Shown here: positions 10,658 to 60,102 of the stretch, in pieces | Position numbering within the stretch: position 1 is the stretch's first letter | Layout: each line of letters opens with the position of its first letter | Sequence record: MK962758 | DNA from: Shigella phage JK55 | DNA: 64,000 nt | Reading direction: 5' to 3' (one strand) | The notes under the pieces: generated by a model | The model's database searches: none | What the model was told of the DNA's origin: nothing | What the model saw: only the letters and a program-made list of their open reading frames with translations | Translations under genes and position numbers: made by a program

Positions 10658-10702
10658 AGATAAAGAGCTTTACCACTAAATCCTAAATTGGAGAACTTAA
10701 AA

Positions 10703-11107: not shown

Positions 11108-11116
11108 AAAATTTTG

Positions 11117-11176: not shown

Positions 11177-11208
11177 ACTAAATAAAGTCCTAAACTGGAG
11201 ATTCAAAA

Positions 11209-11412: not shown

Positions 11413-11416
11413 AGTA

Positions 11417-11452
11417 CTTTACAAGGGGCTTAAAAGTTGATAACTTAAGCCT
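11417..11452 (+). promoter_or_regulatory. type-B early cassette (hairpin GGGGCTTAA...TTAAGCCTC)
   Basis: Same architecture; one stem mismatch. Confidence 0.45.
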
Positions 11453-11497
11453 CAGATAAAGAGCTTTACCACTAAATCCTAAACTGGAGATTCAAAA

Positions 11498-12040: not shown

Positions 12041-12072
12041 AAACCTACACAATCACCTTATAAACACTGATT

Positions 12073-12093
12073 AGCCCCTTGTAGGGGCTTTTA
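12073..12093 (+). terminator. rho-independent terminator (AGCCCCT-TGT-AGGGGCT + TTTT)
   Basis: 7-bp GC-rich stem, short loop, T-run. Confidence 0.6.
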
Positions 12094-12106
12094 GAGGGCT
12101 TAAATC

Positions 12107-12340
12107 ATGCTAACAACCGTTTATCTCATCCTCTCAATTTGTAATGGCCATTCATGTGACTTTAAAGGGCTTGAAGAGTTTACAGGGAGTAAAGAAAATG
12201 CTATTCAAGTTTGCCAGATAGCAAGGCAAGACTATCCCGCCAGTGATGATATACAATGCTACTTTAAGACAGAAGATGAAGAAGGAATCTATTTCGACAG
12301 CGTTGATGGTCAATATGAAATTATCATTGAAAAAGACTAG
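12107..12340 (+). CDS. hypothetical small protein (77 aa)
   Basis: ORF with AGAGGG RBS; the only gene in the array without a cassette. Confidence 0.45.
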   Translation: MLTTVYLILSICNGHSCDFKGLEEFTGSKENAIQVCQIARQDYPASDDIQCYFKTEDEEGIYFDSVDGQYEIIIEKD

Positions 12341-12397
12341 ACAAGCCTGATAAAAGTCTGTAAATTGTCAATCAACGGGGAGGGAATGACCTTCCCC
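12338..12397 (+). promoter_or_regulatory. type-A early cassette (TAGACA-17-TAAATT; hairpin)
   Basis: -35 12338-12343, -10 12361-12366, hairpin 12377-12397. Confidence 0.55.
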
Positions 12398-12432
12398 ACT
12401 AAATAAAGTCCTTAAACTAGGAGATTCCAAAA

Positions 12433-12774
12433 ATGGCTTATGTAACCGTAATTACCGATAAAGCTGGCGCATCTTGGTCAACTCAGGTTAGTGATAAGAT
12501 GTCGCCTATGCAGTGCCTAAAATACTTTGAACAGTGGAACAAAGGCGAGGACACAAGCCCCTTTCAAGTGATGCAGATTATCCATGTAGACAACGAAGGG
12601 AAGAAAACAACTCTGAATAGTGAGTACTATGCAAGCCGTTTTGAAACGAGAAGTAAAACAATGAAGCTTCTACGTGAATCCGGTTATACCCATATCGCCG
12701 CGTTAATCTGGGATGACCTTCTAAAAAGTCAACGTATCAGCTATGTAAAGCCTGAAAAAATATTCATCAGTTAA
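12433..12774 (+). CDS. hypothetical early protein (113 aa)
   Basis: ORF behind type-A cassette. Confidence 0.55.
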   Translation: MAYVTVITDKAGASWSTQVSDKMSPMQCLKYFEQWNKGEDTSPFQVMQIIHVDNEGKKTTLNSEYYASRFETRSKTMKLLRESGYTHIAALIWDDLLKSQRISYVKPEKIFIS

Positions 12775-12903
12775 TCAATAACTTACAAAAAACTTTTAAA
12801 AAAGTGTTGACAATACCCCTTGACATTGGTAACTTTGTTCGAGGGGGTTTATCTAAAAGGGATTCACTTAAAAGATTCTTTATAGATAAGCTTAAAAAAT
12901 TGC

Positions 12904-12960
12904 TTGCAATCAGCTATCAAAACAAGTAAATTACTAATCAACGGGAGGGATAACCTCCCC
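12904..12960 (+). promoter_or_regulatory. type-A early cassette (TTGCAA-17-TAAATT; hairpin GGGAGGGATAACCTCCC)
   Basis: -35 12904-12909, -10 12927-12932, hairpin 12943-12960 with covarying stem. Confidence 0.5.
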
Positions 12961-12993
12961 ACTAAATAAAATCCTTAAACTAGGAGAGTCAAA

Positions 12994-13524
12994 ATGAACA
13001 AGTTTAAAGCTATCAACTTCATTCGTTCAAATGCTGTAATGTCAAAACCTGTAAAAGACACATACGAATTTCGCTGCAATGGGGTACACTTTGCAACCAT
13101 CACTAAGTCAGAAAACGGGGCTTATTACATTCATCGCCGTAATGTTTCTACTGTTGTAGTCTCTCACTTTATGCAAGCTGTAGCGGAATTATTACCGTTA
13201 TTCTTAGAGATTTACTTAGATGAGTGCAAAAACGTTCGTAACCACGTTAAAAACCTTTTAAACGGTTATAAAATGGCTTATGAACGTTCTATCAAGTCCT
13301 TAAACAAGTTTTATAAAGCCCCTGTAAATACTGTTTCAATGGCTTACAGTGTAAGCGGTGAGTTGGTTAGCCTCTTCGAAGTAGAAGAAATTGAACTATA
13401 TGACTCACGTCCTAGCGGTTACTCTAAGACACTGGGAGAAGGTTTATCTTTCAATATCAAGAACTTAGAAAAAACTTTAAAAGATATTGAAAAAGATATT
13501 GACGAAACAATCAAAAGTCTGTAA
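12994..13524 (+). CDS. hypothetical early protein (176 aa)
   Basis: ORF behind type-A cassette. Confidence 0.55.
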   Translation: MNKFKAINFIRSNAVMSKPVKDTYEFRCNGVHFATITKSENGAYYIHRRNVSTVVVSHFMQAVAELLPLFLEIYLDECKNVRNHVKNLLNGYKMAYERSIKSLNKFYKAPVNTVSMAYSVSGELVSLFEVEEIELYDSRPSGYSKTLGEGLSFNIKNLEKTLKDIEKDIDETIKSL

Positions 13525-13558
13525 ATTGTCAATCAACGGGGAGGGAATGACCTTCCCC
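13499..13558 (+). promoter_or_regulatory. type-A early cassette (TTGACG-17-TAAATT; hairpin); promoter lies inside 3' end of upstream gene
   Basis: -35 13499-13504, -10 13522-13527, hairpin 13538-13558. Confidence 0.55.
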
Positions 13559-13603
13559 GCTAAACAAAACCCTTAATCAACTTCCTAAACTGGAGATTCT
13601 AAA

Positions 13604-13852
13604 ATGGCTACTATCCGCGCAACTGTTAACGAATTTGGCTTCTACTCTCTGGACGTTAAATTTGACCTTGTAGGTACTGATAACGCCTTTGAAATGGTGA
13701 AAGGCCTTATCAGCCAGACCATCAGTGACTACAACCCCTCTGATGAATTCTGGAAAGAAACAAAACAAGAAGCCCTTAAAGATGGTTACACTTATCACTA
13801 TTGGGGCGAAAAAATTGTCTCCCTGTACTACGACAAAAAAGGCACTAACTAA
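13604..13852 (+). CDS. hypothetical small early protein (82 aa)
   Basis: ORF behind type-A cassette; last gene before the non-coding region. Confidence 0.55.
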   Translation: MATIRATVNEFGFYSLDVKFDLVGTDNAFEMVKGLISQTISDYNPSDEFWKETKQEALKDGYTYHYWGEKIVSLYYDKKGTN

Positions 13853-13890
13853 ACGCCGCAACGGGGCTAAATAGCCCCAGATACCTTTAC

Positions 13891-13941
13891 AGCCCCTTTC
13901 CCATATAGATTCGATAGAGTCTATCTCATAGGGGCTTTTTT
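13891..13941 (+). terminator. terminator-like hairpin (AGCCCCT...AGGGGCT + TTTTT) closing the plus-strand early array
   Basis: 7-bp stem with long structured loop then TTTTT; preceded by smaller hairpin GGGGCTAAATAGCCCC at 13864-13879. Confidence 0.5.
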
Positions 13942-14288
13942 ACGTCTTATCAAATCCCTTATACAACCCTTTCCCTTTCCTTTCCAGAATCTTATCAGAC
14001 CTTAAAAGCAATAACTCTATAGCTTACTCTATAGCCTTTTATTAAATCAACTTAAATATAAGCCCATAACCCGAAAGGGAAGGGCAACCATTTAAACGCT
14101 CTATAAAGCCCTATAACGGCCTTATTAACCTAACTTAAGGGATTGCATTACCTCACCCTTAAAAGCCCTTTATAAAGCTTCCCAGAGCCTTAAAAGAATC
14201 TTATAAGGGTATAAGCTTTATTATCTCGTTAGCTATCTTGTGAATAACTAAAAAGGGCTTGTTAGTGTCTTAAAAGTATGTTATAGGG

Positions 14289-14347
14289 GCTTAAAAGTTA
14301 CTTTGAAGTAGCTTAAAAGTTACTTTGAAGTAGCTTAAAAGTTACGT
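14289..14347. repeat. short tandem repeat, about 2.6 copies of 22-bp unit GCTTAAAAGTTACTTTGAAGTA
   Basis: Read directly: ...GGGGCTTAAAAGTTACTTTGAAGTAGCTTAAAAGTTACTTTGAAGTAGCTTAAAAGTTACG. Confidence 0.8.
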
Positions 14348-14389
14348 AAATGCTAGCCCCCTTAACAATTTCTTAACAATCCCTACATA

Positions 14390-15051
14390 GTTATGCTTTT
14401 AAGGCACTTGTTAGCAACTTGTTAGCCCCTTGTTAAATCTCTGTTAAGACCACGTAAAAGCCTTGTAAGAGTCTTTGACATAGCCTTTAAAGCTTCTGTA
14501 AAGCCTTATAAAAAGGTGTCTGTATAGTTGGGCTGTAGATACTAGGAAGAGACTTAAAAGAGCTTACAAGGAGCTATAGAGAGCTTTTAAGAGGGCTATT
14601 TAGAGATTCACTAGGGATTGGTAACAATACCAATTAAGAGGGAAAGGGAACGATAAGAAAAGAGTAGTGACCATGTTAACAACTTGTTAAAAAGATTAAA
14701 CACTTGTTAGGAACTTGTTAATTATCTTAACAAAATAACTCTTAACATTTAACTACTTAGCTCTTGTTAGTCATCTGTTAAGATTCTGTAAAGCCTATTC
14801 AGCAACTGTTAAGATTCTGTTACATCCTTGTTAGTTCTGTTAAGAATCTGTTAAGGCCTTTGAAGATTTGTTAAGAGCTTGAGAGAGTTGTTAAGAGATT
14901 GTTAAGGATATTTTAAAATTTTGCAAAGTACTTGTAAGGGAGTTGTTAAGGGCTACCAAGCAGATATACATCCTAATCAGATATTTTTCAGTTCCTTCAA
15001 AGACCCTAAAAAATGACTTGATAGCTCTATTTTATAAAAATTTTAAGATTC
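14390..15051. repeat. 662-bp tandem direct repeat, copy 1 (iteron-rich)
   Basis: Sequence from 14390 repeats at offset 662; all line-by-line spot checks identical. Confidence 0.85.
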
Positions 15052-15713
15052 GTTATGCTTTTAAGGCACTTGTTAGCAACTTGTTAGCCCCTTGTTAAAT
15101 CTCTGTTAAGACCACGTAAAAGCCTTGTAAGAGTCTTTGACATAGCCTTTAAAGCTTCTGTAAAGCCTTATAAAAAGGTGTCTGTATAGTTGGGCTGTAG
15201 ATACTAGGAAGAGACTTAAAAGAGCTTACAAGGAGCTATAGAGAGCTTTTAAGAGGGCTATTTAGAGATTCACTAGGGATTGGTAACAATACCAATTAAG
15301 AGGGAAAGGGAACGATAAGAAAAGAGTAGTGACCATGTTAACAACTTGTTAAAAAGATTAAACACTTGTTAGGAACTTGTTAATTATCTTAACAAAATAA
15401 CTCTTAACATTTAACTACTTAGCTCTTGTTAGTCATCTGTTAAGATTCTGTAAAGCCTATTCAGCAACTGTTAAGATTCTGTTACATCCTTGTTAGTTCT
15501 GTTAAGAATCTGTTAAGGCCTTTGAAGATTTGTTAAGAGCTTGAGAGAGTTGTTAAGAGATTGTTAAGGATATTTTAAAATTTTGCAAAGTACTTGTAAG
15601 GGAGTTGTTAAGGGCTACCAAGCAGATATACATCCTAATCAGATATTTTTCAGTTCCTTCAAAGACCCTAAAAAATGACTTGATAGCTCTATTTTATAAA
15701 AATTTTAAGATTC
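15052..15713. repeat. 662-bp tandem direct repeat, copy 2
   Basis: Identical to 14390-15051 in every segment compared. Confidence 0.85.
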
Positions 15714-16218
15714 TGAATAATTACCTATACAGTCTTTTAAAAATACAGGTAGAAACAGGCTTATAAGATACCTTGTTAGTACCGTGTTAGACCTTGTGAG
15801 ATAAGGTCTGTAAAGATATTCCTGTTAAGTTTGTTAAAACAGTCTATATAGAGGCTTAGTAATACCTAGTGAACACCTATAGAGAGTATCATAGCTAACC
15901 TAGAGATTAAGAGGTGTATAGGAGCTTCTAAGAGGGTGTAGAGAGATGGTTAAGGTGATTGTATAGGTTGTTAAGAAGGCTTGTTAGAAGAGTGTTTAGA
16001 AGGCTTGTTAGAGGGTTATTTAGAAGGGCTATACAGATGGGCTATTAAGACCACTAGATAGTTACTAAGATACTATATAGTACTATATAACTATATAGAG
16101 AGTAAGATTAAGAAGGTTGTTAAGAAGGATAGATATTTTGTTCACATATGATGGTGACCCAGAGGTTGGGACAACCGATAAAATTTTATAAAAAATATAA
16201 ATTTCGTAAATTTTACTC

Positions 16219-16249
16219 AATAAAAAGCCCCCAATTAAGGAGGCTCTTA
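16219..16249 (-). terminator. rho-independent terminator for minus-strand block
   Basis: On minus strand: GAGCCTCCTTAATTGGGGGCTTTTTATT (stem plus U-run) just after the stop of 16257..16850. Confidence 0.5.
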
Positions 16250-16256
16250 AGATATT

Positions 16257-16850
16257 TTAAATCAATGTTTCCAGAACTGTTTTTAGGGATGACTTAGTTG
16301 TCTGATAAAAATGAGTGAATCCGTTGTTGTTATCGAATATCTGCATCATGATATCATCTCCCTTGATTGGGTATACTCGGATATCATAGTGAAACCCGTT
16401 AAAGACAGCAGAACCATTACAGAACACACTAAAATCGTCCACTGAGATATACTCTTCATGTCCTGTGATTTTTATACAGACGCCTTTGCTCGGTCTCTTA
16501 GGGTTGATATCTTCCATCACAGACATACTCTGTCCACCAAGAGATACCATAGTGACCACTTTACGGTTCTTCTGTCTAAAGTACATTTTAACTTTCTGTA
16601 AAGTGTCTTCATAGAACGGATAAGACTTCTCTACAAAGATTCCTTCAAGTGGCTCTTTACCATTTTCAACTTCTCTGGTATGTCGTACTGCAAAGATAAT
16701 TTGTTGGAACCAGTCAAGATTTTCTTCGGAGAGTGCTTCACGAACATCACTCCAGTCAAGGACTAGGTAGTTACCTTCAACTTCTTTTAAGTTATCTTTT
16801 TCCATAGCTATCACACCATTATCGTAAAACTTGGTAGGCTGGTACTGCAA
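16257..16850 (-). CDS. hypothetical protein
   Basis: ORF in co-directional minus-strand block. Confidence 0.5.
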   Translation of the reverse strand: MQYQPTKFYDNGVIAMEKDNLKEVEGNYLVLDWSDVREALSEENLDWFQQIIFAVRHTREVENGKEPLEGIFVEKSYPFYEDTLQKVKMYFRQKNRKVVTMVSLGGQSMSVMEDINPKRPSKGVCIKITGHEEYISVDDFSVFCNGSAVFNGFHYDIRVYPIKGDDIMMQIFDNNNGFTHFYQTTKSSLKTVLETLI

Positions 16851-25489: not shown

Positions 25490-25566
25490 CTCTGTTTAGC
25501 TCAGCTTGGTAGAGCGTTCCGTTTGGGGCGGTAAGGCCGGAGGTTCAAGTCCTCCAACAGAGACCA
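25490..25566 (+). tRNA. tRNA-Pro (anticodon TGG)
   Basis: Hand-folded cloverleaf: 7-bp acceptor CTCTGTT/AACAGAG, D-arm GCTC..GAGC, anticodon loop TTTGGGG, T-arm GGAGGTTCAAGTCCTCC, CCA encoded. Confidence 0.7.
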
Positions 25567-25573
25567 AATTAAT

Positions 25574-25651
25574 GTTCCAGTAGACAAAATGGTATAGTCA
25601 CCACTCTTTCAAAGTGGATATCTGAGGGTTCAAATCCCTTCTGGAACGCCA
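25574..25651 (+). tRNA. tRNA-Glu (anticodon TTC)
   Basis: Acceptor GTTCCAG/CTGGAAC, anticodon stem CCACT/AGTGG with loop CTTTCAA, T-arm GAGGGTTCAAATCCCTT, CCA encoded. Confidence 0.6.
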
Positions 25652-25738
25652 GTTTTGACAGAAGACCAATTACAGCAAACTGAATCTACTCATCTGACAC
25701 GAAATCGGACAAAGAAGATATTTGGTCTGGTCATTAAG
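25652..25738 (+). ncRNA. repeated structured element, copy a (ACAGAAGACCAATTACAGCAA ... TTGGTCTGG)
   Basis: Shares 5' motif and covarying closing stem with copies b, c, d. Confidence 0.4.
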
Positions 25739-25741
25739 AAT

Positions 25742-25818
25742 TGCGGGTATAGAGAAAGGGCGTCTCACATGTCTCATTAGCATGGTATCGGCAGGTTCGA
25801 CTCCTGCACCCGCCTCCA
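25742..25818 (+). tRNA. tRNA-Met or Ile2 (anticodon CAT)
   Basis: Anticodon loop CTCATTA, T-arm GCAGGTTCGACTCCTGC, acceptor about 6/7 bp, CCA encoded. Confidence 0.55.
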
Positions 25819-25819
25819 A

Positions 25820-25892
25820 ATTTACAGAAGACCGTTTACAGCAATACTTATTAAATTTTTAGCGGAAAAATTGAAAGATGCGGTCTGGTAAT
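25820..25892 (+). ncRNA. repeated structured element, copy b (ACAGAAGACCGTTTACAGCAA ... CGGTCTGG)
   Basis: As above; closing stem AGACCG/CGGTCT. Confidence 0.4.
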
Positions 25893-25901
25893 ACTAAACA
25901 T

Positions 25902-25975
25902 GGTTAGGAAGCACATAAGGTATGTGCGGTCGCCTGTTAAGCGAATGGCACAGGGTTCGAATCCCTGACTAACCG
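25902..25975 (+). tRNA. tRNA-Asn (anticodon GTT)
   Basis: D-arm GCAC..GTGC, anticodon loop CTGTTAA, T-arm CAGGGTTCGAATCCCTG; no CCA encoded. Confidence 0.55.
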
Positions 25976-25986
25976 CAAAATTTAAA

Positions 25987-26075
25987 TGTGTCGTTATCCC
26001 GTAGATGGTAGCGGTGGGGACTGTAAATCCCTTGTCATTGAGACTCGGTAGGTTCGACTCCTACACGGCACACCA
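25987..26075 (+). tRNA. tRNA-Tyr (anticodon GTA), long variable arm
   Basis: Anticodon loop CTGTAAA, about 15-nt variable arm, T-arm GTAGGTTCGACTCCTAC, CCA encoded. Confidence 0.6.
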
Positions 26076-26080
26076 ATAAA

Positions 26081-26158
26081 GGTTATGTAGTTTAATTTGG
26101 TTAAAATACTCCCCTGTCACGGGAGATGATGAGGGTTCAAATCCCTTCGTAACCGCCA
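26081..26158 (+). tRNA. tRNA-Asp (anticodon GTC)
   Basis: Anticodon stem CTCCC/GGGAG with loop CTGTCAC, T-arm GAGGGTTCAAATCCCTT, CCA encoded. Confidence 0.6.
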
Positions 26159-26216
26159 ATTTTGAGAGGGCTATTTAGCCCCTCCCTTAAAGAGTTCTTA
26201 CGAGTATTCTTTAAAG

Positions 26217-26296
26217 GAGTAGAAGACCAAATACAGCAAGAATGTATGATATTTTCAAGCCAATTCAATTTTGAAAAAATTTAAAACTTGGTCTGG
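26217..26296 (+). ncRNA. repeated structured element, copy c (AGAAGACCAAATACAGCAA ... TTGGTCTGG)
   Basis: As above; closing stem AGACCAA/TTGGTCT. Confidence 0.4.
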
Positions 26297-26306
26297 CTCA
26301 ACAAAT

Positions 26307-26450
26307 TTACAGAAGACCGTTTACAGCAAAACTTAAACAATCTATTTCTCGGTAAAGAAAAGGCGAAGGTTCGATTCCTTCACTCGGCAGAGGTCGAGTT
26401 GGTGTAATGGTAGCACTTAAGATGATAAACAACGGTCTGGTAATTATCTT
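26307..26450 (+). ncRNA. repeated structured element, copy d, expanded; contains tRNA-like T-arm (GAAGGTTCGATTCCTTC) and D-arm-like segment
   Basis: Closing stem AGACCGTT/AACGGTCT; internal T-loop motif and TGGTGTAATGGTAGCAC D-arm-like segment, but no complete cloverleaf found. Confidence 0.35.
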
Positions 26451-26585
26451 TGTAGATAAGTTATTAAGCTTACCTGTGAGTATGCGACCACAAAGGGTGA
26501 AAGGGTAAATTCTAGATTTAAACCCAAAAAGTCACATCGCTACAGACCTTAAGCAAGTCTGGGTAGCTTATCTACAAAGATAATT
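26441..26585 (+). repeat. 19-bp perfect inverted repeat (TAATTATCTTTGTAGATAAG / CTTATCTACAAAGATAATT) enclosing 105 bp
   Basis: Arms at 26441-26460 and 26566-26584; candidate RNase III-type processing stem or miniature inverted-repeat element. Confidence 0.6.
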
Positions 26586-26589
26586 TAAT

Positions 26590-26665
26590 GGAAGTGTAGC
26601 AGAATGGTGATGCGGCAGACTTTTAATCTGACAGGCGATGGGTTCGAATCCCTCCACTTCTACCA
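26590..26665 (+). tRNA. tRNA-Lys (anticodon TTT)
   Basis: Acceptor GGAAGTG/CACTTCT, anticodon loop CTTTTAA, T-loop TTCGAAT with weak T-stem, CCA encoded. Confidence 0.5.
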
Positions 26666-26669
26666 AAAT

Positions 26670-26746
26670 GGTTCAGTCGCAGATAAGGTAATGCAAGGGT
26701 CTCATAAGCCCTATGAATGTGGGTTCGAATCCCATCTGAACCTCCA
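26670..26746 (+). tRNA. tRNA-Met or Ile2 (anticodon CAT), second copy
   Basis: Acceptor GGTTCAG/CTGAACC, anticodon stem AGGGT/GCCCT loop CTCATAA, T-arm GTGGGTTCGAATCCCAT, CCA encoded. Confidence 0.6.
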
Positions 26747-26748
26747 AT

Positions 26749-26823
26749 TGTGGGTTAGCATAAATGGTAATGCAAACGGCTGATAACCGTTAGAAGAGGG
26801 TTCGATACCCTCACCTACAACCA
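26749..26823 (+). tRNA. tRNA-Ile (anticodon GAT)
   Basis: Anticodon stem AACGG/CCGTT loop CTGATAA, T-arm GAGGGTTCGATACCCTC, CCA encoded. Confidence 0.6.
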
Positions 26824-26838
26824 AATTCAATAAAGTTG

Positions 26839-26867
26839 TTGACATTGAGATGTGACTACTTTATAGT
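26839..26867 (+). promoter_or_regulatory. sigma70-like promoter inside tRNA cluster (TTGACA-17-TATAGT)
   Basis: -35 26839-26844, -10 26862-26867; about 200 nt of non-tRNA sequence follows before the next tRNA. Confidence 0.55.
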
Positions 26868-27070
26868 ACCCTTAGTTTTCGTTGCGTAGCGTCTATTTTG
26901 CAAATTTAAAATAAATGCAAACGACAATGTTTTTCTGGCAGTAGCTTGATAGGCTAAACACCAGTGAGGTCTTCCAATCCCTCATCAAAGAATTTGGCGT
27001 ACTCGCCCACGGTATGATTAATAAGGTGGGCATCTTTAAGGGCTTTCTAAGAGAGTCTTTAAAGATTAAT

Positions 27071-27147
27071 GCACCCTTAGTTCAACTGGACAGAGCAAAT
27101 GACTTCTAATCATTGAGTTACAGGTTCGAATCCTGTAGGGTGCGCCA
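27071..27147 (+). tRNA. tRNA-Arg (anticodon TCT)
   Basis: Acceptor GCACCCT/AGGGTGC, anticodon stem AATGA/TCATT loop CTTCTAA, T-arm ACAGGTTCGAATCCTGT, CCA encoded. Confidence 0.65.
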
Positions 27148-27289
27148 ATTAGTTAGCAGATTACTTAGACGACCTAAGCGGGTCTTCCTGTAGGGAGGTG
27201 GTCTGTATCTCATGTTTTCCAGAACATGTAAATAATCTGAGAAGGGGCTTTACAGTGTTGAGATAATACGGTAAGTTTCGAATTATAGT

Positions 27290-27372
27290 ATGGGACGATG
27301 TTAAGACTCTAAGGCATGAGCAACGGCCTCCAAAACCGTTTCAAAGGGGTTCAACTCCTCCGTCCCATGCCA
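27290..27372 (+). tRNA. atypical tRNA-like gene (possible anticodon CCA in an enlarged 9-nt loop; isotype unresolved)
   Basis: Perfect acceptor ATGGGAC/GTCCCAT, T-arm AGGGGTTCAACTCCTCC, CCA encoded, but 83 nt long with about 7 extra nt between acceptor and anticodon arm; stem AACGG/CCGTT encloses CCTCCAAAA. Confidence 0.35.
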
Positions 27373-27385
27373 AAGTCTTATTAGT

Positions 27386-27473
27386 GGTAGGTAGCGGCTA
27401 ATGGTAGCCAAACTGTCTTGAAAACAGTTGCCACTGTAGAGATACGGTGAGGGTTCGACTCCTTTACTTACCG
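27386..27473 (+). tRNA. tRNA-Ser (anticodon TGA), long variable arm
   Basis: Anticodon stem ACTGT/ACAGT loop CTTGAAA, long variable arm, T-arm GAGGGTTCGACTCCTTT; no CCA encoded. Confidence 0.55.
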
Positions 27474-27730
27474 CCTAATAAGATTTAAAGCCAAGCTTCA
27501 TTCGGATGTTGCTTTGGTATCCCTCGTGTATTGTCGTACACACTAATAAAGCACCTAGTAGGTGTCACGGAGAAGAGATAATATCAAGCTCTCCAAAGGT
27601 TCTAGTCACCGGATTAAACAAGACTATGCAAAGACCTTTTTAGGTCTTTTTAGAGGGCTTCTAAGGTTATTACAGCTTGTTGTGGAACCTTGTTGCTTAG
27701 GTTCTTAGAAGTTCTCTAAAAAGGTTTAAT

Positions 27731-27808
27731 GGGAGATTGACGGTAATTGGTAAACCTATCTCGCTTAGAACGAGATGTTTGAGGGTTCGAATCCCTTGTC
27801 TCCTACCA
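27731..27808 (+). tRNA. tRNA with anticodon TAG (Leu by code) but short variable arm
   Basis: Anticodon stem TCTCG/CGAGA loop CTTAGAA, T-arm GAGGGTTCGAATCCCTT, CCA encoded; class-I length. Confidence 0.45.
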
Positions 27809-27815
27809 AATTAAT

Positions 27816-27891
27816 GCAGGTGTAGCAAAATGGTTATGCGGCTGACTCTTAATCAGTAAGACGATGGGTTCAATTCCCTCCACCTGTACCA
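27816..27891 (+). tRNA. tRNA-Lys (anticodon CTT)
   Basis: Acceptor GCAGGTG/CACCTGT, anticodon stem GCTGA/TCAGT loop CTCTTAA, T-loop TTCAATT, CCA encoded; paralog of tRNA-Lys(TTT). Confidence 0.5.
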
Positions 27892-27897
27892 AACAAT

Positions 27898-27973
27898 GGG
27901 GTCATAGTTTATATGGTTAAAATTCGAGTTTTGCAAACTTGGGAACTGAGTTCAATTCTCAGTGACTCCACCA
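27898..27973 (+). tRNA. tRNA-Ala (anticodon TGC)
   Basis: Anticodon stem CGAGT/ACTTG loop TTTGCAA, T-arm CTGAGTTCAATTCTCAG, CCA encoded. Confidence 0.5.
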
Positions 27974-27979
27974 ATTAGT

Positions 27980-28054
27980 GCATCCATAGTTTAAACGGGA
28001 AAATTACAGTCTTCCAAACTGAGGTTGAGGGTTCGATTCCCTCTGGATGCTCCA
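27980..28054 (+). tRNA. tRNA-Gly (anticodon TCC)
   Basis: Perfect acceptor GCATCCA/TGGATGC, anticodon loop CTTCCAA, T-arm GAGGGTTCGATTCCCTC, CCA encoded. Confidence 0.6.
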
Positions 28055-28060
28055 AACAAT

Positions 28061-28137
28061 GCTGCTTTCGTATAATTGGCTATTACACATCCCTTGTAAG
28101 GATGGAAATGCAGGTTCGAGTCCTGTGAGCAGCACCA
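28061..28137 (+). tRNA. tRNA-Thr (anticodon TGT)
   Basis: Anticodon stem CATCC/GGATG loop CTTGTAA, T-arm GCAGGTTCGAGTCCTGT, CCA encoded. Confidence 0.65.
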
Positions 28138-28140
28138 ATT

Positions 28141-28232
28141 CAGAGGTCAAGTGAAAGACCGCTGGTGTCAACTGAAGACCGTAACAAATTCCACGGAGTT
28201 GAGTTAGCGGCACAACTTCAGACCTCTTTCAC
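28141..28232 (+). ncRNA. structured non-tRNA element between tRNA-Thr and tRNA-Val (nested inverted repeats)
   Basis: AGAGGTC...GACCTCT outer inverted repeat, CTGAAG...CTTCAG inner repeat, contains the GAAGACCGT motif shared with copies a-d; no T-loop motif. Confidence 0.35.
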
Positions 28233-28307
28233 ACTCGCTTAGTTTATATGGTAAAACATCACCCTTACAAGATGAAGAAAAAGGTTCAAGTCCTTTAGTG
28301 AGTACCA
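28233..28307 (+). tRNA. tRNA-Val (anticodon TAC)
   Basis: Acceptor ACTCGCT/AGTGAGT, anticodon loop CTTACAA, T-arm AAGGTTCAAGTCCTT, CCA encoded. Confidence 0.5.
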
Positions 28308-28308
28308 T

Positions 28309-28386
28309 GTTCCAGTATCCCAATTGGCAGAGGATGCAAGCTCAAACCTTGTATTAGTGACGGTTCGAATCCGTCTTGGAACACCA
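28309..28386 (+). tRNA. tRNA with anticodon CAA (Leu by code) but short variable arm
   Basis: Acceptor GTTCCAG/TTGGAAC, anticodon stem GCAAG/CTTGT loop CTCAAAC, T-arm GACGGTTCGAATCCGTC, CCA encoded. Confidence 0.45.
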
Positions 28387-28405
28387 ATTTTAAGAGGCTA
28401 TTTAG

Positions 28406-28963
28406 ATGAGATATTTGAAGTATGCTTCATGGATTTTCTTAGCTTTACTAGAACCATTTGCAGCAACCCTAGCAGTCATCTTAGCACCTTTCGTAGTTCC
28501 ATTCTACAGTGAGAAGAAAGGGCATCTACCTTTTGGATTCAGATGGATGGAGACCTATGACAACCCGATTGATGGTGATAAAGGCCACGTTGAGAGATGG
28601 GCTAAGATTAGAAAGATTGGCAAGCTCGGTGTTTATATGCAGAGAGTTGGATGGCTCTGGAGAAACAAAGCTTATAACTTCTCTTACCATGTATTAGGAA
28701 GAGATGTAAAAGATGTTACTAAGTGGAAAGGTAATATCAACGTAAGTTCTGACCCTGAAGATAATCAGACAGGTTATCTCCTAATGTGGAACAACAATGC
28801 TTGGGGATTATTCGCTTTTATTCCGTCAATTAAAATCTTTGGTAAACAGTTTTACTGGAGAATTTATGTTGGATGGAAACTAAAAAGTGTTGTCCCAGAA
28901 GAAAGAGCATTCTCAAGGGAAAGAGTTATGTTGGCATTCTTTATTCATCCACTGAGAAAGTAA
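28406..28963 (+). CDS. hypothetical membrane protein embedded in tRNA cluster
   Basis: N-terminal hydrophobic segments (IFLALLEPFAATLAVILAPFVVPF); AAGAGG RBS 9 nt upstream. Confidence 0.55.
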   Translation: MRYLKYASWIFLALLEPFAATLAVILAPFVVPFYSEKKGHLPFGFRWMETYDNPIDGDKGHVERWAKIRKIGKLGVYMQRVGWLWRNKAYNFSYHVLGRDVKDVTKWKGNINVSSDPEDNQTGYLLMWNNNAWGLFAFIPSIKIFGKQFYWRIYVGWKLKSVVPEERAFSRERVMLAFFIHPLRK

Positions 28964-28971
28964 AGATTTAA

Positions 28972-29047
28972 AGGGGATTAGTTTACAAGGTTAAAACCTC
29001 GGTCTTTGAAATCGAAGAAGTTGGTTCAATTCCAACATCCCCCGCCA
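28972..29047 (+). tRNA. tRNA-Gln (anticodon TTG)
   Basis: Anticodon stem TCGGT/ATCGA loop CTTTGAA, T-arm GTTGGTTCAATTCCAAC, CCA encoded. Confidence 0.55.
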
Positions 29048-29049
29048 AT

Positions 29050-29128
29050 GCTCCATTACTCCAATTGGCAGAGAGGCCAGACTTAAAATCTGTGTTATGT
29101 ATCGGTTCGAATCCGATATGGAGTACCA
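29050..29128 (+). tRNA. tRNA with anticodon TAA (Leu by code) but short variable arm
   Basis: Acceptor GCTCCAT/ATGGAGT, anticodon loop CTTAAAA, T-arm ATCGGTTCGAATCCGAT, CCA encoded; D-arm paralogous to the CAA tRNA. Confidence 0.45.
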
Positions 29129-29133
29129 AATTT

Positions 29134-29209
29134 AGCGGTATAGCATAACTGGCAATGCAGCAGTCTCTGAAGCTGTCTTATTAAGGTTCAAATCCTTATG
29201 CCGCTGCCA
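29134..29209 (+). tRNA. tRNA-Gln (anticodon CTG)
   Basis: Acceptor AGCGGTA/TGCCGCT, anticodon loop CTCTGAA, T-arm TAAGGTTCAAATCCTTA, CCA encoded. Confidence 0.5.
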
Positions 29210-29240
29210 CTTCTAAGGGTTCTTACGAGAGTCCTTAAAT

Positions 29241-29316
29241 GTGGCCTTATCATAAATGGTAATGACCCATGCTGTGAACATGGTCTATACGGGTTCAAAT
29301 CCCGTAGGTCACCCCA
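29241..29316 (+). tRNA. tRNA-His (anticodon GTG)
   Basis: Anticodon stem CCATG/CATGG loop CTGTGAA, T-arm ACGGGTTCAAATCCCGT, CCA encoded. Confidence 0.65.
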
Positions 29317-29322
29317 ATTTAT

Positions 29323-29398
29323 AGTCCAAGTAGCTTATATGGTTAAAGCGCGTGTCTGAAAAACATGAGAAGAGGGTTCGAATCCCACTGGACTACCA
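29323..29398 (+). tRNA. tRNA-Phe (anticodon GAA)
   Basis: Anticodon stem CGTGT/ACATG loop CTGAAAA, T-loop TTCGAAT, CCA encoded. Confidence 0.55.
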
Positions 29399-29416
29399 AT
29401 TTCAAAGGTGCTTAAT

Positions 29417-30149
29417 GAAAGAGATGACAGAACAAGGTAAGGAGATTTTTAATCTCTTAAAAACCGGTAAAGGGTTTTCTAACCCACTTATTACTGGTGC
29501 AGCAGTTCTCGGTGGAACCGTAGCTGCTTCTACATCACTTGTAAGCTCTATTAGTTCTGTAACAGACCCTACAATGCAGGAGAAACTTGTTGCTGCTGGA
29601 CTTACAACAGTCCTTCTAAACAGCTTTACAACAAGCCTTACAAGCACTACAGCAACTACTAAAACTCTGACAGACTACGGTCAAAAGTCTATTGATGAGT
29701 TTTCATCACGTATGCAGGTAGCAAAGGGGTATTCCAATGTTATGGGTGCAGCAGGAGAGCAAGTTGGTTGTACACCATTCAGTGGTATCATGGGTGTTGC
29801 TACAGAGTATGGTCAAAAAGCTATTAACATGATGAACAGTACACTAGATAGTGTTAATGGTGTGTTAAGTGACTTACAAGATGCTATTGATAAGGGTCTT
29901 GATACTGTTTCTGATTTAGCTAATCAGGCTGTTAGTAAGATTAATGAAGGTATTTCAAAGATTACAGCTTATGCAGATGAAGTTGTGCAGATGATTGAAG
30001 AAGAAGCTTCCCTTATTGCAGAGTACCTTAAAACGAATATCAATGGGTTCTTAGCAGGTATCTTACCAGACTGGTTTGATGATGCCTGTAAAACTGGTGT
30101 GATTGACACTATTGCAACACCAGAAATGAAGAGCGCATTACAGAAATAA
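29417..30149 (+). CDS. hypothetical protein (Ser/Thr/Ala-rich N-terminal region) embedded in tRNA cluster
   Basis: Start moved to ATG 29417 (AAAGGTG upstream) because the track start 29352 lies inside tRNA-Phe. Confidence 0.5.
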
Positions 30150-30150
30150 T

Positions 30151-30243
30151 GGAAGATTAACCCTAAAAGGTAAGGGAGCAGTTTGCTAAACTGCCAGTAG
30201 CTGAGAAATCGGTGTACCAGTTCAAGTCTGGTATCTTCCTCCA
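30151..30243 (+). tRNA. tRNA-Ser (anticodon GCT), long variable arm
   Basis: Perfect acceptor GGAAGAT/ATCTTCC, anticodon stem GCAGT/ACTGC loop TTGCTAA, about 20-nt variable arm, T-arm ACCAGTTCAAGTCTGGT, CCA encoded. Confidence 0.7.
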
Positions 30244-30247
30244 ATTT

Positions 30248-30323
30248 GAATCCGTGACAGAAATGGATATGTGCCTGTCTGCAAAACAGGTTTATAAGGG
30301 TTCGAGTCCCTTCGGATTCTCCA
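30248..30323 (+). tRNA. tRNA-Cys (anticodon GCA)
   Basis: Perfect acceptor GAATCCG/CGGATTC, anticodon stem CCTGT/ACAGG loop CTGCAAA, T-arm AAGGGTTCGAGTCCCTT, CCA encoded. Confidence 0.7.
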
Positions 30324-56000: not shown

Positions 56001-56516
56001 CTATTTAACCTCAAAAACTGGCTCAAGAACCAATATAAAGCCTACACAGTCATCTTCTTCATCCAGAATACCATCAAAGTTCTTAGGAACGAAGTCGAAG
56101 AGGCTCATAACAAAGCAGTCAGAAGTGACCTTGATAGTTCCTCCCATGTTCTCTACAGTCAACACTGTACGACTTTCTTTTACCTCCCTCAGAAGATTAC
56201 CCACAAAGTCGTCTAAGAAGTACTTCATCAATGACTTAAAACCTTTAGGATAATCTGTACCAGAGTATGTTTCAATCTGAGGTACAAGCTTAACATTTAT
56301 ACTAGTCTTTGTTAAGAACGTTTTAGAGAACATACTATCAGGTAACTTACAAACAGTCTTTCCAGTACCTTCATGCTCAATCTCAACAAAACCAGCTTCG
56401 TCGCCACATGTAACTATTTTAAAAGATGCTTCATTCTCATACTGTGAAGCCATAAACTTTTTAAGCATCTCTTTAAGGAAGTCTGCATGAGCATCTTGTA
56501 AGAAGATATCAATCAT
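56001..56516 (-). CDS. hypothetical protein
   Basis: ORF 171 aa. Confidence 0.5.
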   Translation of the reverse strand: MIDIFLQDAHADFLKEMLKKFMASQYENEASFKIVTCGDEAGFVEIEHEGTGKTVCKLPDSMFSKTFLTKTSINVKLVPQIETYSGTDYPKGFKSLMKYFLDDFVGNLLREVKESRTVLTVENMGGTIKVTSDCFVMSLFDFVPKNFDGILDEEDDCVGFILVLEPVFEVK

Positions 56517-56529
56517 AGTTAATCACCTA

Positions 56530-56889
56530 TTATGGGAACAAACACTTAATGTCATCGTTTTTGAAAACAAAACTTGTGTAATTATGACCATCAACATCCA
56601 GCCAAACAGCCTGAACATCTACACCATCAAGATTTTGGTAAAGCTCTTTGATGAAGTGGTCTTTTACAATCTGACTGCTAGTTGTTTCCAACTTAATGTT
56701 CGAGATTGCTGAACCTACAGCCATATAGCCCATGACACGTTTCTTCTCAGTATGCTTAATCTTACCATCTTTGTAAGCCATAATGAGATTGGAAAGAATC
56801 TTTACACCATAATACTTTTCAAGGTGAGTAGGTACACCATAAAAGCCTAATGCGAAGTTTTCAGAGTGGATAATGTTTTCACGTTTCAT
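56530..56889 (-). CDS. hypothetical protein
   Basis: ORF 119 aa. Confidence 0.5.
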   Translation of the reverse strand: MKRENIIHSENFALGFYGVPTHLEKYYGVKILSNLIMAYKDGKIKHTEKKRVMGYMAVGSAISNIKLETTSSQIVKDHFIKELYQNLDGVDVQAVWLDVDGHNYTSFVFKNDDIKCLFP

Positions 56890-56890
56890 A

Positions 56891-57220
56891 CTAGTCTGCC
56901 AACCTTAAATTGAAATTAACACCAAATTTTTCACATACTTCCAACATATACTCAAGGGAAACATTACCAGTGAGGTGGATTATGTTGGATACACGAGCCT
57001 GAGAGATACCACAAATTTTAGCAACTTGCTCTTGAGAAAGACCTCTGGATTTAATCTCTCTCTTAAAACGATGTGCAACGAAGTCTCTCATTTCGTCTAC
57101 ATCCATTGGACAAATATAACTCTCCATTTCAGCCTCTCTATCAGCCTCCCAATCATCTTGTGGAGCATAAGGGTCAAAAACTTCATTCATCTTTCTTCTT
57201 CCGTTTGCGTGAAGTGTCAA
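56891..57220 (-). CDS. helix-turn-helix DNA-binding protein (XRE/Cro-like)
   Basis: RGLSQEQVAKICGISQARVSNIIH matches HTH pattern. Confidence 0.55.
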   Translation of the reverse strand: MTLHANGRRKMNEVFDPYAPQDDWEADREAEMESYICPMDVDEMRDFVAHRFKREIKSRGLSQEQVAKICGISQARVSNIIHLTGNVSLEYMLEVCEKFGVNFNLRLAD

Positions 57221-57395
57221 TCAATGAATCTATGTTTGTAGCCCTAACCTTTTCACGTTCATCGTTAAGATAATCATCAAGAGCCTTTTCAATCTGTGAA
57301 TCATCTTGACAGATAACTGTAAAGACTGTAAAGCCGTCTGTATCGTCAATTATCTTACCATAACCGCTTCTGGGATGTAACTTTTTAAGAGCCAT
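57183..57395 (-). CDS. hypothetical small protein
   Basis: ORF 70 aa. Confidence 0.4.
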   Translation of the reverse strand: MALKKLHPRSGYGKIIDDTDGFTVFTVICQDDSQIEKALDDYLNDEREKVRATNIDSLIDTSRKRKKKDE

Positions 57396-57396
57396 A

Positions 57397-57780
57397 TCAA
57401 ATACCTGTGCAGCTTCTGTTTTCTAAGAAATACTCAACACCATACATAGCTTTTTGCATCAAATCTTCTTTAAACTGGATACGATGATTAAGCATAGCCT
57501 GTACATCAATATCATCATGGTGCTTCTCTTTGATATTTGCAGATTGCAGGAAATACTCTGCAAGAACACGATACTGATAGTCAGTTACCTTATCAGTCAT
57601 CTCTGTTAAAGACTCTTCAGAGATTGGTTTAAGTAGCTCACCATTAGCCAGAGCAACACCTTTTACAATCTGACAAGTGTCTTCTGAAACACCTGATAAG
57701 TCAACATTTGGAAGTTCTGTTGCATTGACTGGTAAATTTATTGCCATAACCATTGCAGCAGCTAATAAAATCTTTTTCAT
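57397..57780 (-). CDS. secreted/periplasmic hypothetical protein
   Basis: Signal peptide MKKILLAAAMVMAINLPVNA. Confidence 0.5.
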   Translation of the reverse strand: MKKILLAAAMVMAINLPVNATELPNVDLSGVSEDTCQIVKGVALANGELLKPISEESLTEMTDKVTDYQYRVLAEYFLQSANIKEKHHDDIDVQAMLNHRIQFKEDLMQKAMYGVEYFLENRSCTGI

Positions 57781-57963
57781 AATGACCTCAAAGTTATATT
57801 AAATTTTGTATTACATTGAGTATAAAAATAAGCTATAACACCTGACTTGTCAACAGATTTTATAGCTTATTTGGCAGATTTTTTATAAGGCTACTGCCAT
57901 CCTTCCATACCAAACCCTACCGAACAGAACCATGCTTTGCCATACTGGACAACACCTGACCAG

Positions 57964-58003
57964 ACATCACTTAAAAACCCTTTCAAAGACTCTTAAGTGA
58001 TGT
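57964..58003. repeat. inverted repeat hairpin ACATCACTTAA-N18-TTAAGTGATGT, copy 1
   Basis: 11-bp perfect arms. Confidence 0.7.
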
Positions 58004-58247
58004 AATCGAATTTTAATGTAGCTCCGATTAACTACCCATACCTTGCATTACTTCACCAAACCGTACATTACTTCACCAAACCATACATTACCAGACCATG
58101 CCACACCTGTCCAAACTCAACCTCATTAAAAGACCCTGTTTAAAGACCTTTTAAAAAGGTAAGTCTCATTTTAATGTAGCTGAGACTAACTACCCATACC
58201 AAACAGCACCGCACTATGCCTTACCCCACCTCACCGAGCCTCGCCCC

Positions 58248-58289
58248 ACATCACTTAAAAAACCCTTTTCAAAGACTCTTAAGTGATGT
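58248..58289. repeat. inverted repeat hairpin ACATCACTTAA-N20-TTAAGTGATGT, copy 2
   Basis: Same arms and near-identical loop as copy 1. Confidence 0.7.
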
Positions 58290-58502
58290 TGGTGAGTACC
58301 CGTTGGTTTATGCTGCTCAGTATACTCACCAAATTTTCTATGTCAACAACTTTTTATAAAAAGTTCTGATAGCTATATGTGTCACGAAACAAAAGATTGT
58401 AAACAAGACACCCATTGCAAAAGATGTGTCCAAAAGCTTACTTGCAACATATGACAATACAAAGACAACCAGTATAAACATAATGACTGTACTGAACATA
58501 GT

Positions 58503-59639
58503 TTACTCATAATCCCTAATAACTAGCCCAACAGGAAACTGTAAAGAACCCTTACGAGTCATCTTCTGGAACTGAACCGTTAAAGGTTTCCCGATAAACT
58601 CTTCAGGATGCTCAGCAAGATACTGTTTCTTCTCATGAGTAGTCTTCCATGAGACATCTACAAAGACGTTAGGAAGAGTCTCTACAACGAACTTACCGTG
58701 ACCACGTTTATCGGTCTTGACACCAGTCACTTTAAACTCTTCAGTGTGCATCTTCTTGTGCTTAATCAAGAAGTATGAACGGTGACAACACTCATAGAAG
58801 GAGTCTTCAGAGATTGAACGGTACATTGCACCTTCAAACTTAGCTTCAACCCACTTATCATGAGCTTCATCAAACTCTTCCCAAGAATTTACACGACGAG
58901 ATTTAACAGGGACAACTTTACAGCCGTCTCTAAAGTCATTCAATGGTGAAGTCTCAATAATATCTCTACGCTCAGGCCACGTTTTAGTACTGTCACAGAT
59001 ATCATACCAGTAGAACTTAAGTAAGTGTCTGTCAGGATTGTCTTCATTTTTAATCATGGAGACAATATCTTCTAAGTCCCACCCATGAGCATAAATCTCT
59101 CCATCAAATTCATCAACATCTTTGTGGAGCCTTAACATTGCCATAATGTCAGGTATTAGTTCAGTAGGGATTTTGTAAACAGTATTCTCACGAGAATATG
59201 CTGTAAATACACTGCCAATACTTAAGTGTCTTGAAATTCTACAACGTACACCATCAAGTTTTGGTTGAGCATCAGCAGGGAACTTCAGATACTTTGCATG
59301 ACTAACCTTTGCAGCATCATGAGCAAGTTGTACACCTACTTTCTCAGTATTCTTTGCAGACTCTTTTGTGTAAGCGTAGCCTTTACGGTCAACTTGCTTT
59401 TTATACTTAGCAGCAACTTCAAAGAGAGCTTGCTGTTCAGCGTTACGCTCATTCTTTTTACCGATGTTTTTCGGTTCTGCTGTGTACTCTTCAAACATCA
59501 TCTTGCCATTTTCTTTACCATAGGTTGTAATAACTTTGTCACCTACAGCAACGCATGACCAGACGTTGAAAGAGCCATCTTTATTTTGTTTGTATAGGAT
59601 TGTCATTTTTATTCCTCTGAGTGATACCAAGTATTGCAA
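58503..59639 (-). CDS. ATP-dependent DNA ligase
   Basis: Adenylation motif I KLDGVR (AQPKLDGVRCRIS); 378 aa. Confidence 0.75.
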   Translation of the reverse strand: MQYLVSLRGIKMTILYKQNKDGSFNVWSCVAVGDKVITTYGKENGKMMFEEYTAEPKNIGKKNERNAEQQALFEVAAKYKKQVDRKGYAYTKESAKNTEKVGVQLAHDAAKVSHAKYLKFPADAQPKLDGVRCRISRHLSIGSVFTAYSRENTVYKIPTELIPDIMAMLRLHKDVDEFDGEIYAHGWDLEDIVSMIKNEDNPDRHLLKFYWYDICDSTKTWPERRDIIETSPLNDFRDGCKVVPVKSRRVNSWEEFDEAHDKWVEAKFEGAMYRSISEDSFYECCHRSYFLIKHKKMHTEEFKVTGVKTDKRGHGKFVVETLPNVFVDVSWKTTHEKKQYLAEHPEEFIGKPLTVQFQKMTRKGSLQFPVGLVIRDYE

Positions 59640-59800
59640 GCATTACATGCGTAAAGCTCTAAGTCATTTTTATCTGGTTTATGAAAACAGTTTGCTCCGC
59701 AGTGGCAACGAAATGGCTTTCCACCAACTGTCAGGACGAAGGACTGAATCTTTCCATCAGGAGTCCGTACAGCATTTTTATGCTTATCTTCTTTGTTCAT
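59609..59800 (-). CDS. small zinc-finger protein
   Basis: CHCGANC ... CNAC Cys/His pattern. Confidence 0.45.
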   Translation of the reverse strand: MNKEDKHKNAVRTPDGKIQSFVLTVGGKPFRCHCGANCFHKPDKNDLELYACNACNTWYHSEE

Positions 59801-60102
59801 TTCCTCTTGCCACCAATTTCTACGTCAATAACTTGAACATCACCAGCAACATCAAACTTATGAATGATGCTTTCCACAGTGTAAGTCCAACCATCAATGC
59901 GAACCAACTCACCTTCTCGTGGGACGATTGGGTTACGTTGAGCTACCGTTGTAGTAGAGTGAACAACATCATAACAATAGATATAGTTTACTAGGACTTC
60001 CATCGTGAAACCCTCACTCAATAACCGTAGTGTGTGATTGACCATTTTTGCCATAGCTATAAGATGTTGTTGTTTGGGAGTTTGGACATCTGACAACAAC
60101 AA
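59797..60102 (-). CDS. hypothetical protein
   Basis: ORF 101 aa. Confidence 0.45.
   Translation of the reverse strand: MLLSDVQTPKQQHLIAMAKMVNHTLRLLSEGFTMEVLVNYIYCYDVVHSTTTVAQRNPIVPREGELVRIDGWTYTVESIIHKFDVAGDVQVIDVEIGGKRK

Follow-up and report, generated by a model that had tools for sequence, protein, structure and literature searches.

An interval of a Felix O1-like phage that very likely holds VIPR guide-RNA genes without their effector

Between the DNA ligase gene and a secreted-protein gene in the replication block of Shigella phage JK55 lies an interval of about 720 bp (positions 57781–58502 of the window, the 64,000-nt stretch of record MK962758 analyzed here) that is crowded with repeats, and it raises the question of what these repeats are for. 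The preliminary description of the interval had proposed a second origin, a packaging signal or a structured non-coding RNA. The last of these was right in kind, as the interval is predicted to encode guide RNAs with a covarying hairpin-plus-pseudoknot tail, whereas the other two did not hold.

Organization of the interval on the minus strand

The window derives from a Felix O1-like myovirus, and matches to the interval were found in 230 phage records, almost exclusively from Escherichia or Salmonella Felixounavirus. It is bounded by two minus-strand genes, the DNA ligase gene (59639–58503) and the 127-aa gene of a secreted protein with a signal-peptide-like N-terminus (57780–57397). The interval had been described as non-coding throughout; this stands for about 557 nt (57781–58337), which are free of ORFs, but not for the ligase-proximal 162 nt, which form a 53-aa ORF (58338–58499, minus strand; phrog_22006, E 8.1e-32) that is present in the ORF list and specifies a hydrophobic two-helix protein. 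Flanked by the ligase stop codon and promoter P1, this ORF is separate from the guide-RNA array. It is annotated in relatives such as Bas63 and found in some relatives only, and Escherichia phage SUSP1 carries unrelated sequence at its place.

Labels given to the locus in GenBank records include 'DR_4', 'repeat_region', 'possible binding site of StbAB' and promoter/terminator, and the genome papers on Felix O1, wV8 and UAB_Phi87, together with the Bas63 gene-essentiality preprint, hold no explanation of the region. Searching positions 56500–60000 against Rfam 15 returned nothing within 57781–58502 and four weak matches elsewhere, all below gathering scores. A tRNA or tRNA-like remnant was rejected as well: the 25 tRNA genes of the window are all located at 25–30 kb (25490–30323, plus strand), with none at the locus.

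The repeats first noted were all confirmed. The inverted repeats with 11-bp arms, ACATCACTTAA-N18/20-TTAAGTGATGT, occur at 57964–58003 and 58248–58289 with no other copy in the 64 kb (0.00 copies expected from 100 shuffles); TTTTAATGTAGCTNNGANTAACTACCCATACC is present twice, at 58011–58042 and 58169–58200 (0.00 expected); and the tandem CATTACTTCACCAAACC.. repeat has a 20-nt period and 2.3–2.7 copies (58046–58098). Three features had been missed, namely a further hairpin (S, 58121–58159), a third array with its tail (57873–57961) and a 5-nt GGT periodicity of the minus strand, where GGT follows GGT at lags of 5, 10 and 15 nt in 8, 6 and 8 cases and at lags of 7–9 nt in none (shuffled sequence: mean 0.41, maximum 5). 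The GC-skew analysis proposed as a check singled out the interval as the window's strongest GC skew, with 38 G and 117 C on the plus strand. Every repeat listed initially can be assigned to a part of the VIPR guide-RNA units that flank vipr–vap in relatives: the 'TTTTAATGTAGCT..AACTACCCATACC' boxes are two tails of type B, the inverted repeats are hairpins H1 and H2, and the short tandem repeat is a four-unit duplication within array A2. Translated small ORFs together with unconserved repeats had been named as what would speak against the description; instead, the modules are kept across the genus.

Read 5' to 3' on the minus strand, the elements follow the order P1, H2, A1 with tail Ba, S, A2 with tail Bb, H1, A3 with tail T2a, P2 and the secreted-protein gene. 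A promoter scan placed P1 at 58319–58346 (TTGACA, 16-nt spacer, TATACT; 11/12 consensus positions). Judged by this near-consensus, sigma-70-like sequence, P1 is likely the promoter of the guide-RNA array, and its 28 nt recur identically 5' of vrRNA1 in SUSP1, garuso, ekra and Shy; expression of the SUSP1 vrRNAs was observed by small-RNA sequencing (bioRxiv 10.64898/2026.04.26.720920). P2 (57853–57825; TTGACA, 17-nt spacer, TATTTT) serves the secreted-protein gene and coincides with a promoter annotated in ASO1A. An AT-rich inverted repeat of 19 bp (57826–57872, 89% complementary) holds the −35 hexamer of P2 in its loop; this repeat is conserved in all relatives and could be a regulatory site of the secreted-protein operon.

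The hairpins also read on the minus strand. H2 (58248–58289), the second inverted repeat, forms about 18 bp including G-U pairs as minus-strand RNA, with a folding energy of −16.9 kcal/mol (z −5.4) versus −10.1 for the plus strand; the corresponding values are −16.8 (z −5.7) versus −10.2 for H1 (57964–58003), the first inverted repeat, and −14.2 versus −8.4 for S (CCTTTTTAAAAGG...CTTTTAATGAGG), which marks a unit boundary. It is because of the G-U pairs that H and S fold far better as minus- than as plus-strand RNA. The guide arrays themselves are without structure (z about 0). No intrinsic-terminator-like site (GC-rich stem plus T-run) that would account for H or S was detected in 57600–58700. 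In relatives, S and the Ba tail form a direct repeat on both sides of vipr–vap, and in wV8 a 58-nt 'DR_4' repeat is annotated at S, with DR_4 repeats on both sides of genes for 195-aa and 146-aa proteins.

The locus thus described comprises three units, each a degenerate array of GGY+NN pentamers (10–14 units) followed by a 34-nt hairpin-plus-pseudoknot tail. A1 (58196–58245, minus strand) has 10 GGYNN units, 8/10 of them GGY-conforming, with the NN code GA TC GA GG AA AT GC GC TT (AT). A2 (58038–58107, minus strand) holds 14 units in register, contains a 20-nt, four-unit tandem duplication and conforms in 9/16 units, the array being counted as 14–16 units. A3 (57907–57961, minus strand) has 11 units, 7/11 conforming. 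This conformity is below that of the best SUSP1 guide (11/11), yet inside the range of the expressed SUSP1 vrRNAs, the others of which reach 12/14, 9/13 and 6/10. In 22 related IMG/VR loci, where arrays usually count 9–13 units, the pentamers are cleaner and in register (G.89, G 1.0, T.94) and NN is near random. All three arrays of the window show what has been published for vrRNAs, that is, 9–16 tandem YNNGG repeats with GGY conserved and NN variable. In Bas63 (JohannRWettstein), the second guide, about 400–450 nt past the ligase stop on the transcribed strand, repeats GGTTAGGTAT about 4.5 times. This two-unit slippage expansion, comparable to the 20-nt duplication in A2, shows that array growth proceeds in multiples of 5 nt.

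Three tails close the units, all on the minus strand. Ba (58162–58195), the second 'TTTTAATGTAGCT...' box, combines a GTAG:CTAC pseudoknot with the 7-bp stem AGTCTCA:TGAGACT. Bb (58004–58037), the first such box, has the same pseudoknot and the stem AATCGGA:TTCGATT, in which the position of the single G-U pair is A-U in one relative (L017) and G-C in another (L019). T2a (57873–57906; pseudoknot AAGG:CCTT, stem GGCAG:CTGCC) is a paralogue of the SUSP1 vrRNA1 tail (GTGG:CCAC and GGTAG:CTACC). A gap-free alignment was made of 14 distinct tails, which represent four paralogous types. Under a model of a 7-bp stem (5-bp in the T2 types) plus a 4-bp pseudoknot, 93.5% of cells were paired, compared with 28–39% in slid controls; 9/11 pairs had changed on both sides, and the pseudoknot helix was 100% paired. 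The window therefore carries the tail published for the SUSP1 clade, which is about 40 nt long and invariant, with a hairpin and a pseudoknot.

With its two promoters, the promoter and terminator annotated in ASO1A and repeats that flank a gene cassette present in some relatives and absent from others, the interval might be taken for an ordinary regulatory spacer, in which promoters and terminator-like hairpins carry no functional RNA and the repeats merely aid gene shuffling. We consider this very improbable, since it offers no intrinsic-terminator-like site and leaves the pentamer phasing, the covarying tail and the in-frame targets described below unexplained.

Relation to VIPR loci and loss of the effector genes

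In 14 of the 22 related IMG/VR loci, the modules flank genes for the 195-aa and 146-aa proteins. The 195-aa protein is near-identical to PDB entry 36pp, 'SUSP1 Vipr protein' (E 8.5e-129), and neither cassette protein had a significant family match in Pfam. A scan of IMG/VR with (GGTNN)6GGT picked up clustered degenerate arrays in many unrelated viral contigs, and in about 29 unrelated viral contigs, retrieved by DNA pattern alone, a homologue of the 195-aa protein adjoins degenerate (GGTNN)n arrays. Phased GGY every 5 nt plus short conserved punctuation is thus a DNA signature by which arrays can be sought without reference to protein. Some of these unrelated contigs hold much larger guide arrays than the window: one (L047) has roughly a dozen consecutive GGTNN arrays at 2217–3420, punctuated by AAGGAATGGTTTAATGAATTTAATTT; a second (L037) has seven at 3396–3850 on its minus strand, punctuated by AAGGCTAATG; and a third (L125) has its arrays at 3243–4392. 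All three carry a short conserved motif instead of the pseudoknot tail and a distant Vipr homologue beside the arrays.

The VIPR mechanism, a very recent addition to the ways in which RNA directs a protein to DNA, is known from two bioRxiv preprints of 2026, which are not peer-reviewed (10.64898/2026.04.26.720920 and 10.64898/2026.04.26.720927). They describe Vipr as a RAMP-like protein of about 20 kDa and vrRNAs as RNAs of about 100 nt, with 9–16 YNNGG repeats, conserved GGY, hypervariable NN and an invariant tail of about 40 nt that, in the SUSP1 clade, includes a pseudoknot. One Vipr protomer per repeat sequesters GGY and presents NN, so that a helical filament forms on the vrRNA; NN then pairs with double-stranded DNA, every third base being skipped, and transcription of competing phages or satellites is repressed. 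In SUSP1, one vrRNA lies 5' and three lie 3' of vipr–vap1, and 18 of the 20 SUSP1-clade guides with identifiable targets aim at an E. coli satellite phage. The loci in these preprints were located via the Vipr protein, and their authors propose that VIPR predates CRISPR.

The interval is syntenic with SUSP1 agp040...agp037, in the order ligase, P1, H, arrays, P2 and secreted-protein gene. Besides position, it shares with the experimentally characterized type II VIPR locus of SUSP1 P1, H, S, GGY/NN arrays of 10–14 units and tails of types B and T2, and its guides match the same E. coli satellite family by the same 1-nt-skip rule, with the wobble position skipped. Unlike SUSP1, which has both vipr and vap1 between its guides, the window has three guide genes in one uninterrupted array and neither protein gene. 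Taken together, these findings make it very likely that the interval represents the guide-RNA portion of a VIPR locus of type II (SUSP1 clade) from which both protein genes have been lost. The kind of system is already known; what the window presents is its effector-less form, with the guide genes intact and the satellite still matched.

Reading of a conserved triplet every 5 nt in single-stranded RNA by a protein oligomer is a trait that Vipr shares with TRAP. The TRAP site of the Bacillus trp leader consists of (G/U)AG triplets separated by 2–3-nt spacers, TRAP being a ring and its spacers holding no information, whereas the guide of VIPR is made up of the two spacer bases.

Among close relatives, the distance from the ligase gene to the secreted-protein gene varies from 273 to 2132 nt with 1–5 modules. 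This variation, with arrays that vary freely at NN, argued against both other functions proposed at first. A replication origin, built either of iterons and hairpins or of a promoter followed by a G-rich transcript that primes an R-loop, would suit a site among ligase and polymerase genes with the window's strongest GC skew and a near-consensus promoter reading into a G-rich, C-poor transcript. We nevertheless hold it to be extremely unlikely: near-identical phages share no fixed conserved element here, every element is explained as part of a vrRNA, and identical modules stand beside Vipr genes in unrelated viruses. In addition, the genes on both sides are on the minus strand, and the window-scale sign change of GC skew, which may mark a gene-orientation switch and is unrelated to the guide locus, lies away from the interval at about 54 kb. 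The chance that the interval is a DNA packaging signal is close to nil. The presence of repeats speaks for it and nothing more, and against it stand the high variability of the region among relatives and the 608-bp direct terminal repeats of the Felix O1-like phage UAB_Phi87 (PMC4837284), whose ligase gene lies at about 57 kb in an 87.6-kb record. Several further candidates were dropped once the link to Vipr was established, namely an R-loop origin, primase-site clusters, two-tetrad G-quadruplexes, an opposite-strand Rho rut site, Type III restriction-site decoys, a TRAP-like ring protein and an IS200-like mobile cassette.

The effector genes are missing from the window, which covers 64 of the roughly 87 kb of the genome. 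The best tblastn hit in it had E 0.26 with Vipr and E 3.0 with the 146-aa Vap1, and a profile HMM built from about 150 homologues reached E 0.57 at best against the six-frame ORFs of the window, compared with about 1e-37 to 1e-43 for control ORFs. All 130 Vipr-encoding phage records have vipr at one single genomic place, which makes a copy in the remaining 23 kb or so of this genome improbable. Of the Felix O1-like (Ounavirinae) records in GenBank, 118 have a gene for Vipr at ≥90% identity, against 259 records with the same neighbourhood; therefore, roughly half are without vipr, including Bas63 and humlepung. Such loci, which thus appear in about half of a well-sampled phage group and in a laboratory phage, are missed by a search based on the Vipr protein.

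The vipr-positive relatives suggest how the window lost the genes. A1 recurs unchanged, together with its promoter, H, tail and S, as the first guide 5' of vipr in garuso and ekra. Likewise, A2 and A3 recur unchanged together with Bb, H and T2a as the final two guides 3' of vap in Shy (100% identity for A2); other relatives carry different deletion products with one or two guides. We infer that homologous recombination between the flanking direct repeats, each a Ba tail plus an S hairpin, removed vipr and vap1, as a crossover between the copy 5' of vipr and the copy 3' of vap would give exactly the order seen in the window. Because the guides are identical to those of garuso, ekra and Shy, this deletion between repeated tail/S modules was probably recent. 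Repeated tail and hairpin modules would likewise explain the coming and going of the vipr–vap cassette. A comparable role in gene gain and loss is played by the promoter-early stem-loop (PeSL) cassettes of T4-type phages, repeated intergenic promoter/hairpin modules that flank small genes and drive their gain or loss by recombination; the repeats of the window differ in being themselves predicted functional RNA genes (vrRNA tails and hairpins), beyond regulatory signals.

Predicted targets in an E. coli satellite

To search for targets of the guides, we located the satellite via the gene for the SUSP1 baseplate protein agp017, following the clue in the preprint that a baseplate protein is common to the satellite and SUSP1. 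Of 5,426 complete E. coli genomes, 474 contained the satellite, strains PAR, Z1323PEC0010 and GN4751 among them. Its variants (L157, at about 4450–16350, and L158–L161) encode two serine recombinases, a tape measure protein and a baseplate protein and are inserted at yciI/tonB or at other sites. We scanned five variants of about 11.5 kb each under the 1-nt-skip rule. SUSP1 guides served as positive controls and reproduced the published result, with 20/22 NN positions matched for vrRNA1, 25/28 for vrRNA2 and 18/20 for vrRNA4.

All three guides of the window matched this competing element at ≥80% of NN positions with the wobble base skipped. A1 matched 17/20 NN positions (85%) in frame in the large serine recombinase gene (predicted target GAATCAGAGAGGAAGATTGCAGCGTT), a level reached by 2/200 permuted guides. 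A2 matched 24/28 (86%) in a gene for an HTH-domain protein (predicted target GTGTTAGATAAGTTATTAGATAAAACATTAGATAATAATAT; 0/200 permuted), including 18/18 over its 3' nine units, and A3 matched 18/22 (82%) in frame in a hypothetical gene (predicted target CAGAATCCAATGAAAATATCATCAAGCTTG; 5/200 permuted). The permutation nulls for A1 and A3 are modest. In the targets of A1–A3, every skipped base is a codon position 3. The last unit, GGTAT, is nearly constant beside the tail and accounts for a mismatch in A1 and in A3; when it was omitted, the scores became 17/18 and 18/20, respectively. The target of A2 contains a 12-nt (LDK-type) repeat, to which the 20-nt duplication of the guide corresponds.

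Across 71 distinct guides, a satellite match of ≥80% was found for 32/52 guides that occur only in vipr-positive phages and for 8/17 that occur only in vipr-minus phages. By comparison, 1–2 guides reached this level in equal-sized flanking chromosome or after permutation. No site in the window matched its own guides at ≥80% of NN positions, and blastn of the array DNA against the 5,426 E. coli genomes gave no match. An exact-pattern scan of IMG/VR returned 0 matches for A1 and A3, as it did for the positive control, SUSP1 vrRNA1; in GTDB, A1 had 4 matches, a number in line with chance, and each of them came from an unrelated environmental MAG.

Retention of guides without Vipr

Without Vipr, the RNAs may be transcribed but would silence nothing on their own. 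Given guides identical to those of vipr-positive phages, decay has had no time to set in, and a recent remnant is the default reading: the orphan guides are most likely a young remnant, usable only with Vipr supplied in trans.

Selection might instead keep the guides for loading in trans onto the Vipr of a co-infecting vipr-positive relative, a 'free-rider' genotype that we consider unlikely. It would fit the observation that about half of the relatives are without vipr, yet each vipr-less locus examined retains P1, H, at least one array and an intact tail. It would also fit GGY conformity, at 0.69 in vipr-less and 0.78 in vipr-positive loci, a small gap between closely related sequences, and the satellite matches kept by the 8/17 guides noted above. 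Guide-only elements do exist: none of the five satellites encodes a Vipr homologue, and one of them (L161, 5061–5093, minus strand) has its own vrRNA array with a T2b-like tail. Against trans use, identity with the guides of vipr-positive phages leaves too little time for decay, so that selection is not required; the smallest deletion products are those expected from repeat-mediated recombination anyway; and the arrangement pays only if co-infection is frequent.

Even less probable, by a wide step, is that the arrays act as decoys that titrate the Vipr of rival phages, an RNA anti-VIPR conceived by analogy with RNA anti-CRISPRs. The intact Vipr-binding determinants (tails and GGY motifs) and the strong promoter would suit such a function, but specific in-frame satellite matches would be needless for a pure decoy, and the guides are identical to those found in a working context in vipr-positive phages. 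That effector-less phages, which include this one, Bas63, humlepung and roughly half of the relatives sampled, retain transcribed satellite-directed guides either for use with, or in competition for, the Vipr of co-infecting relatives is on the whole doubtful. If true, VIPR would be a 'public good' that phages share, some of them as guide-only genotypes; the VIPR preprints describe no such arrangement. With garuso, ekra or Shy on one side and this phage on the other, there are natural vipr-positive/vipr-negative pairs with identical guides, usable for measuring what VIPR is worth on satellite-bearing hosts.

Guide genes without an effector gene in their own genome are also what the satellite vrRNAs represent. 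A satellite, however, depends by definition on a helper and can expect the Vipr of that helper, whereas a lytic phage without vipr can count on no such supplier. Orphan CRISPR arrays and phage-borne mini-arrays are likewise guide arrays without, or set apart from, effector genes; they differ in chemistry and code, as the guide of VIPR lies in non-contiguous NN dinucleotides within pentamers and has no spacer-repeat structure.

A second ORF-free region of about 1.1 kb was observed elsewhere in the window, at 13853–14942; it combines tandem GCTTAAAAGTTACTTTGAAGTA repeats with a strong GC skew of its own. The region is 80–91% conserved in 255 Felix O1-like records, where it is often annotated 'repeat_region'. 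In phage ZX4221 its counterpart stands at the extreme end of the sequence record and is present twice, and this region may thus be a genome terminus or a direct terminal repeat.
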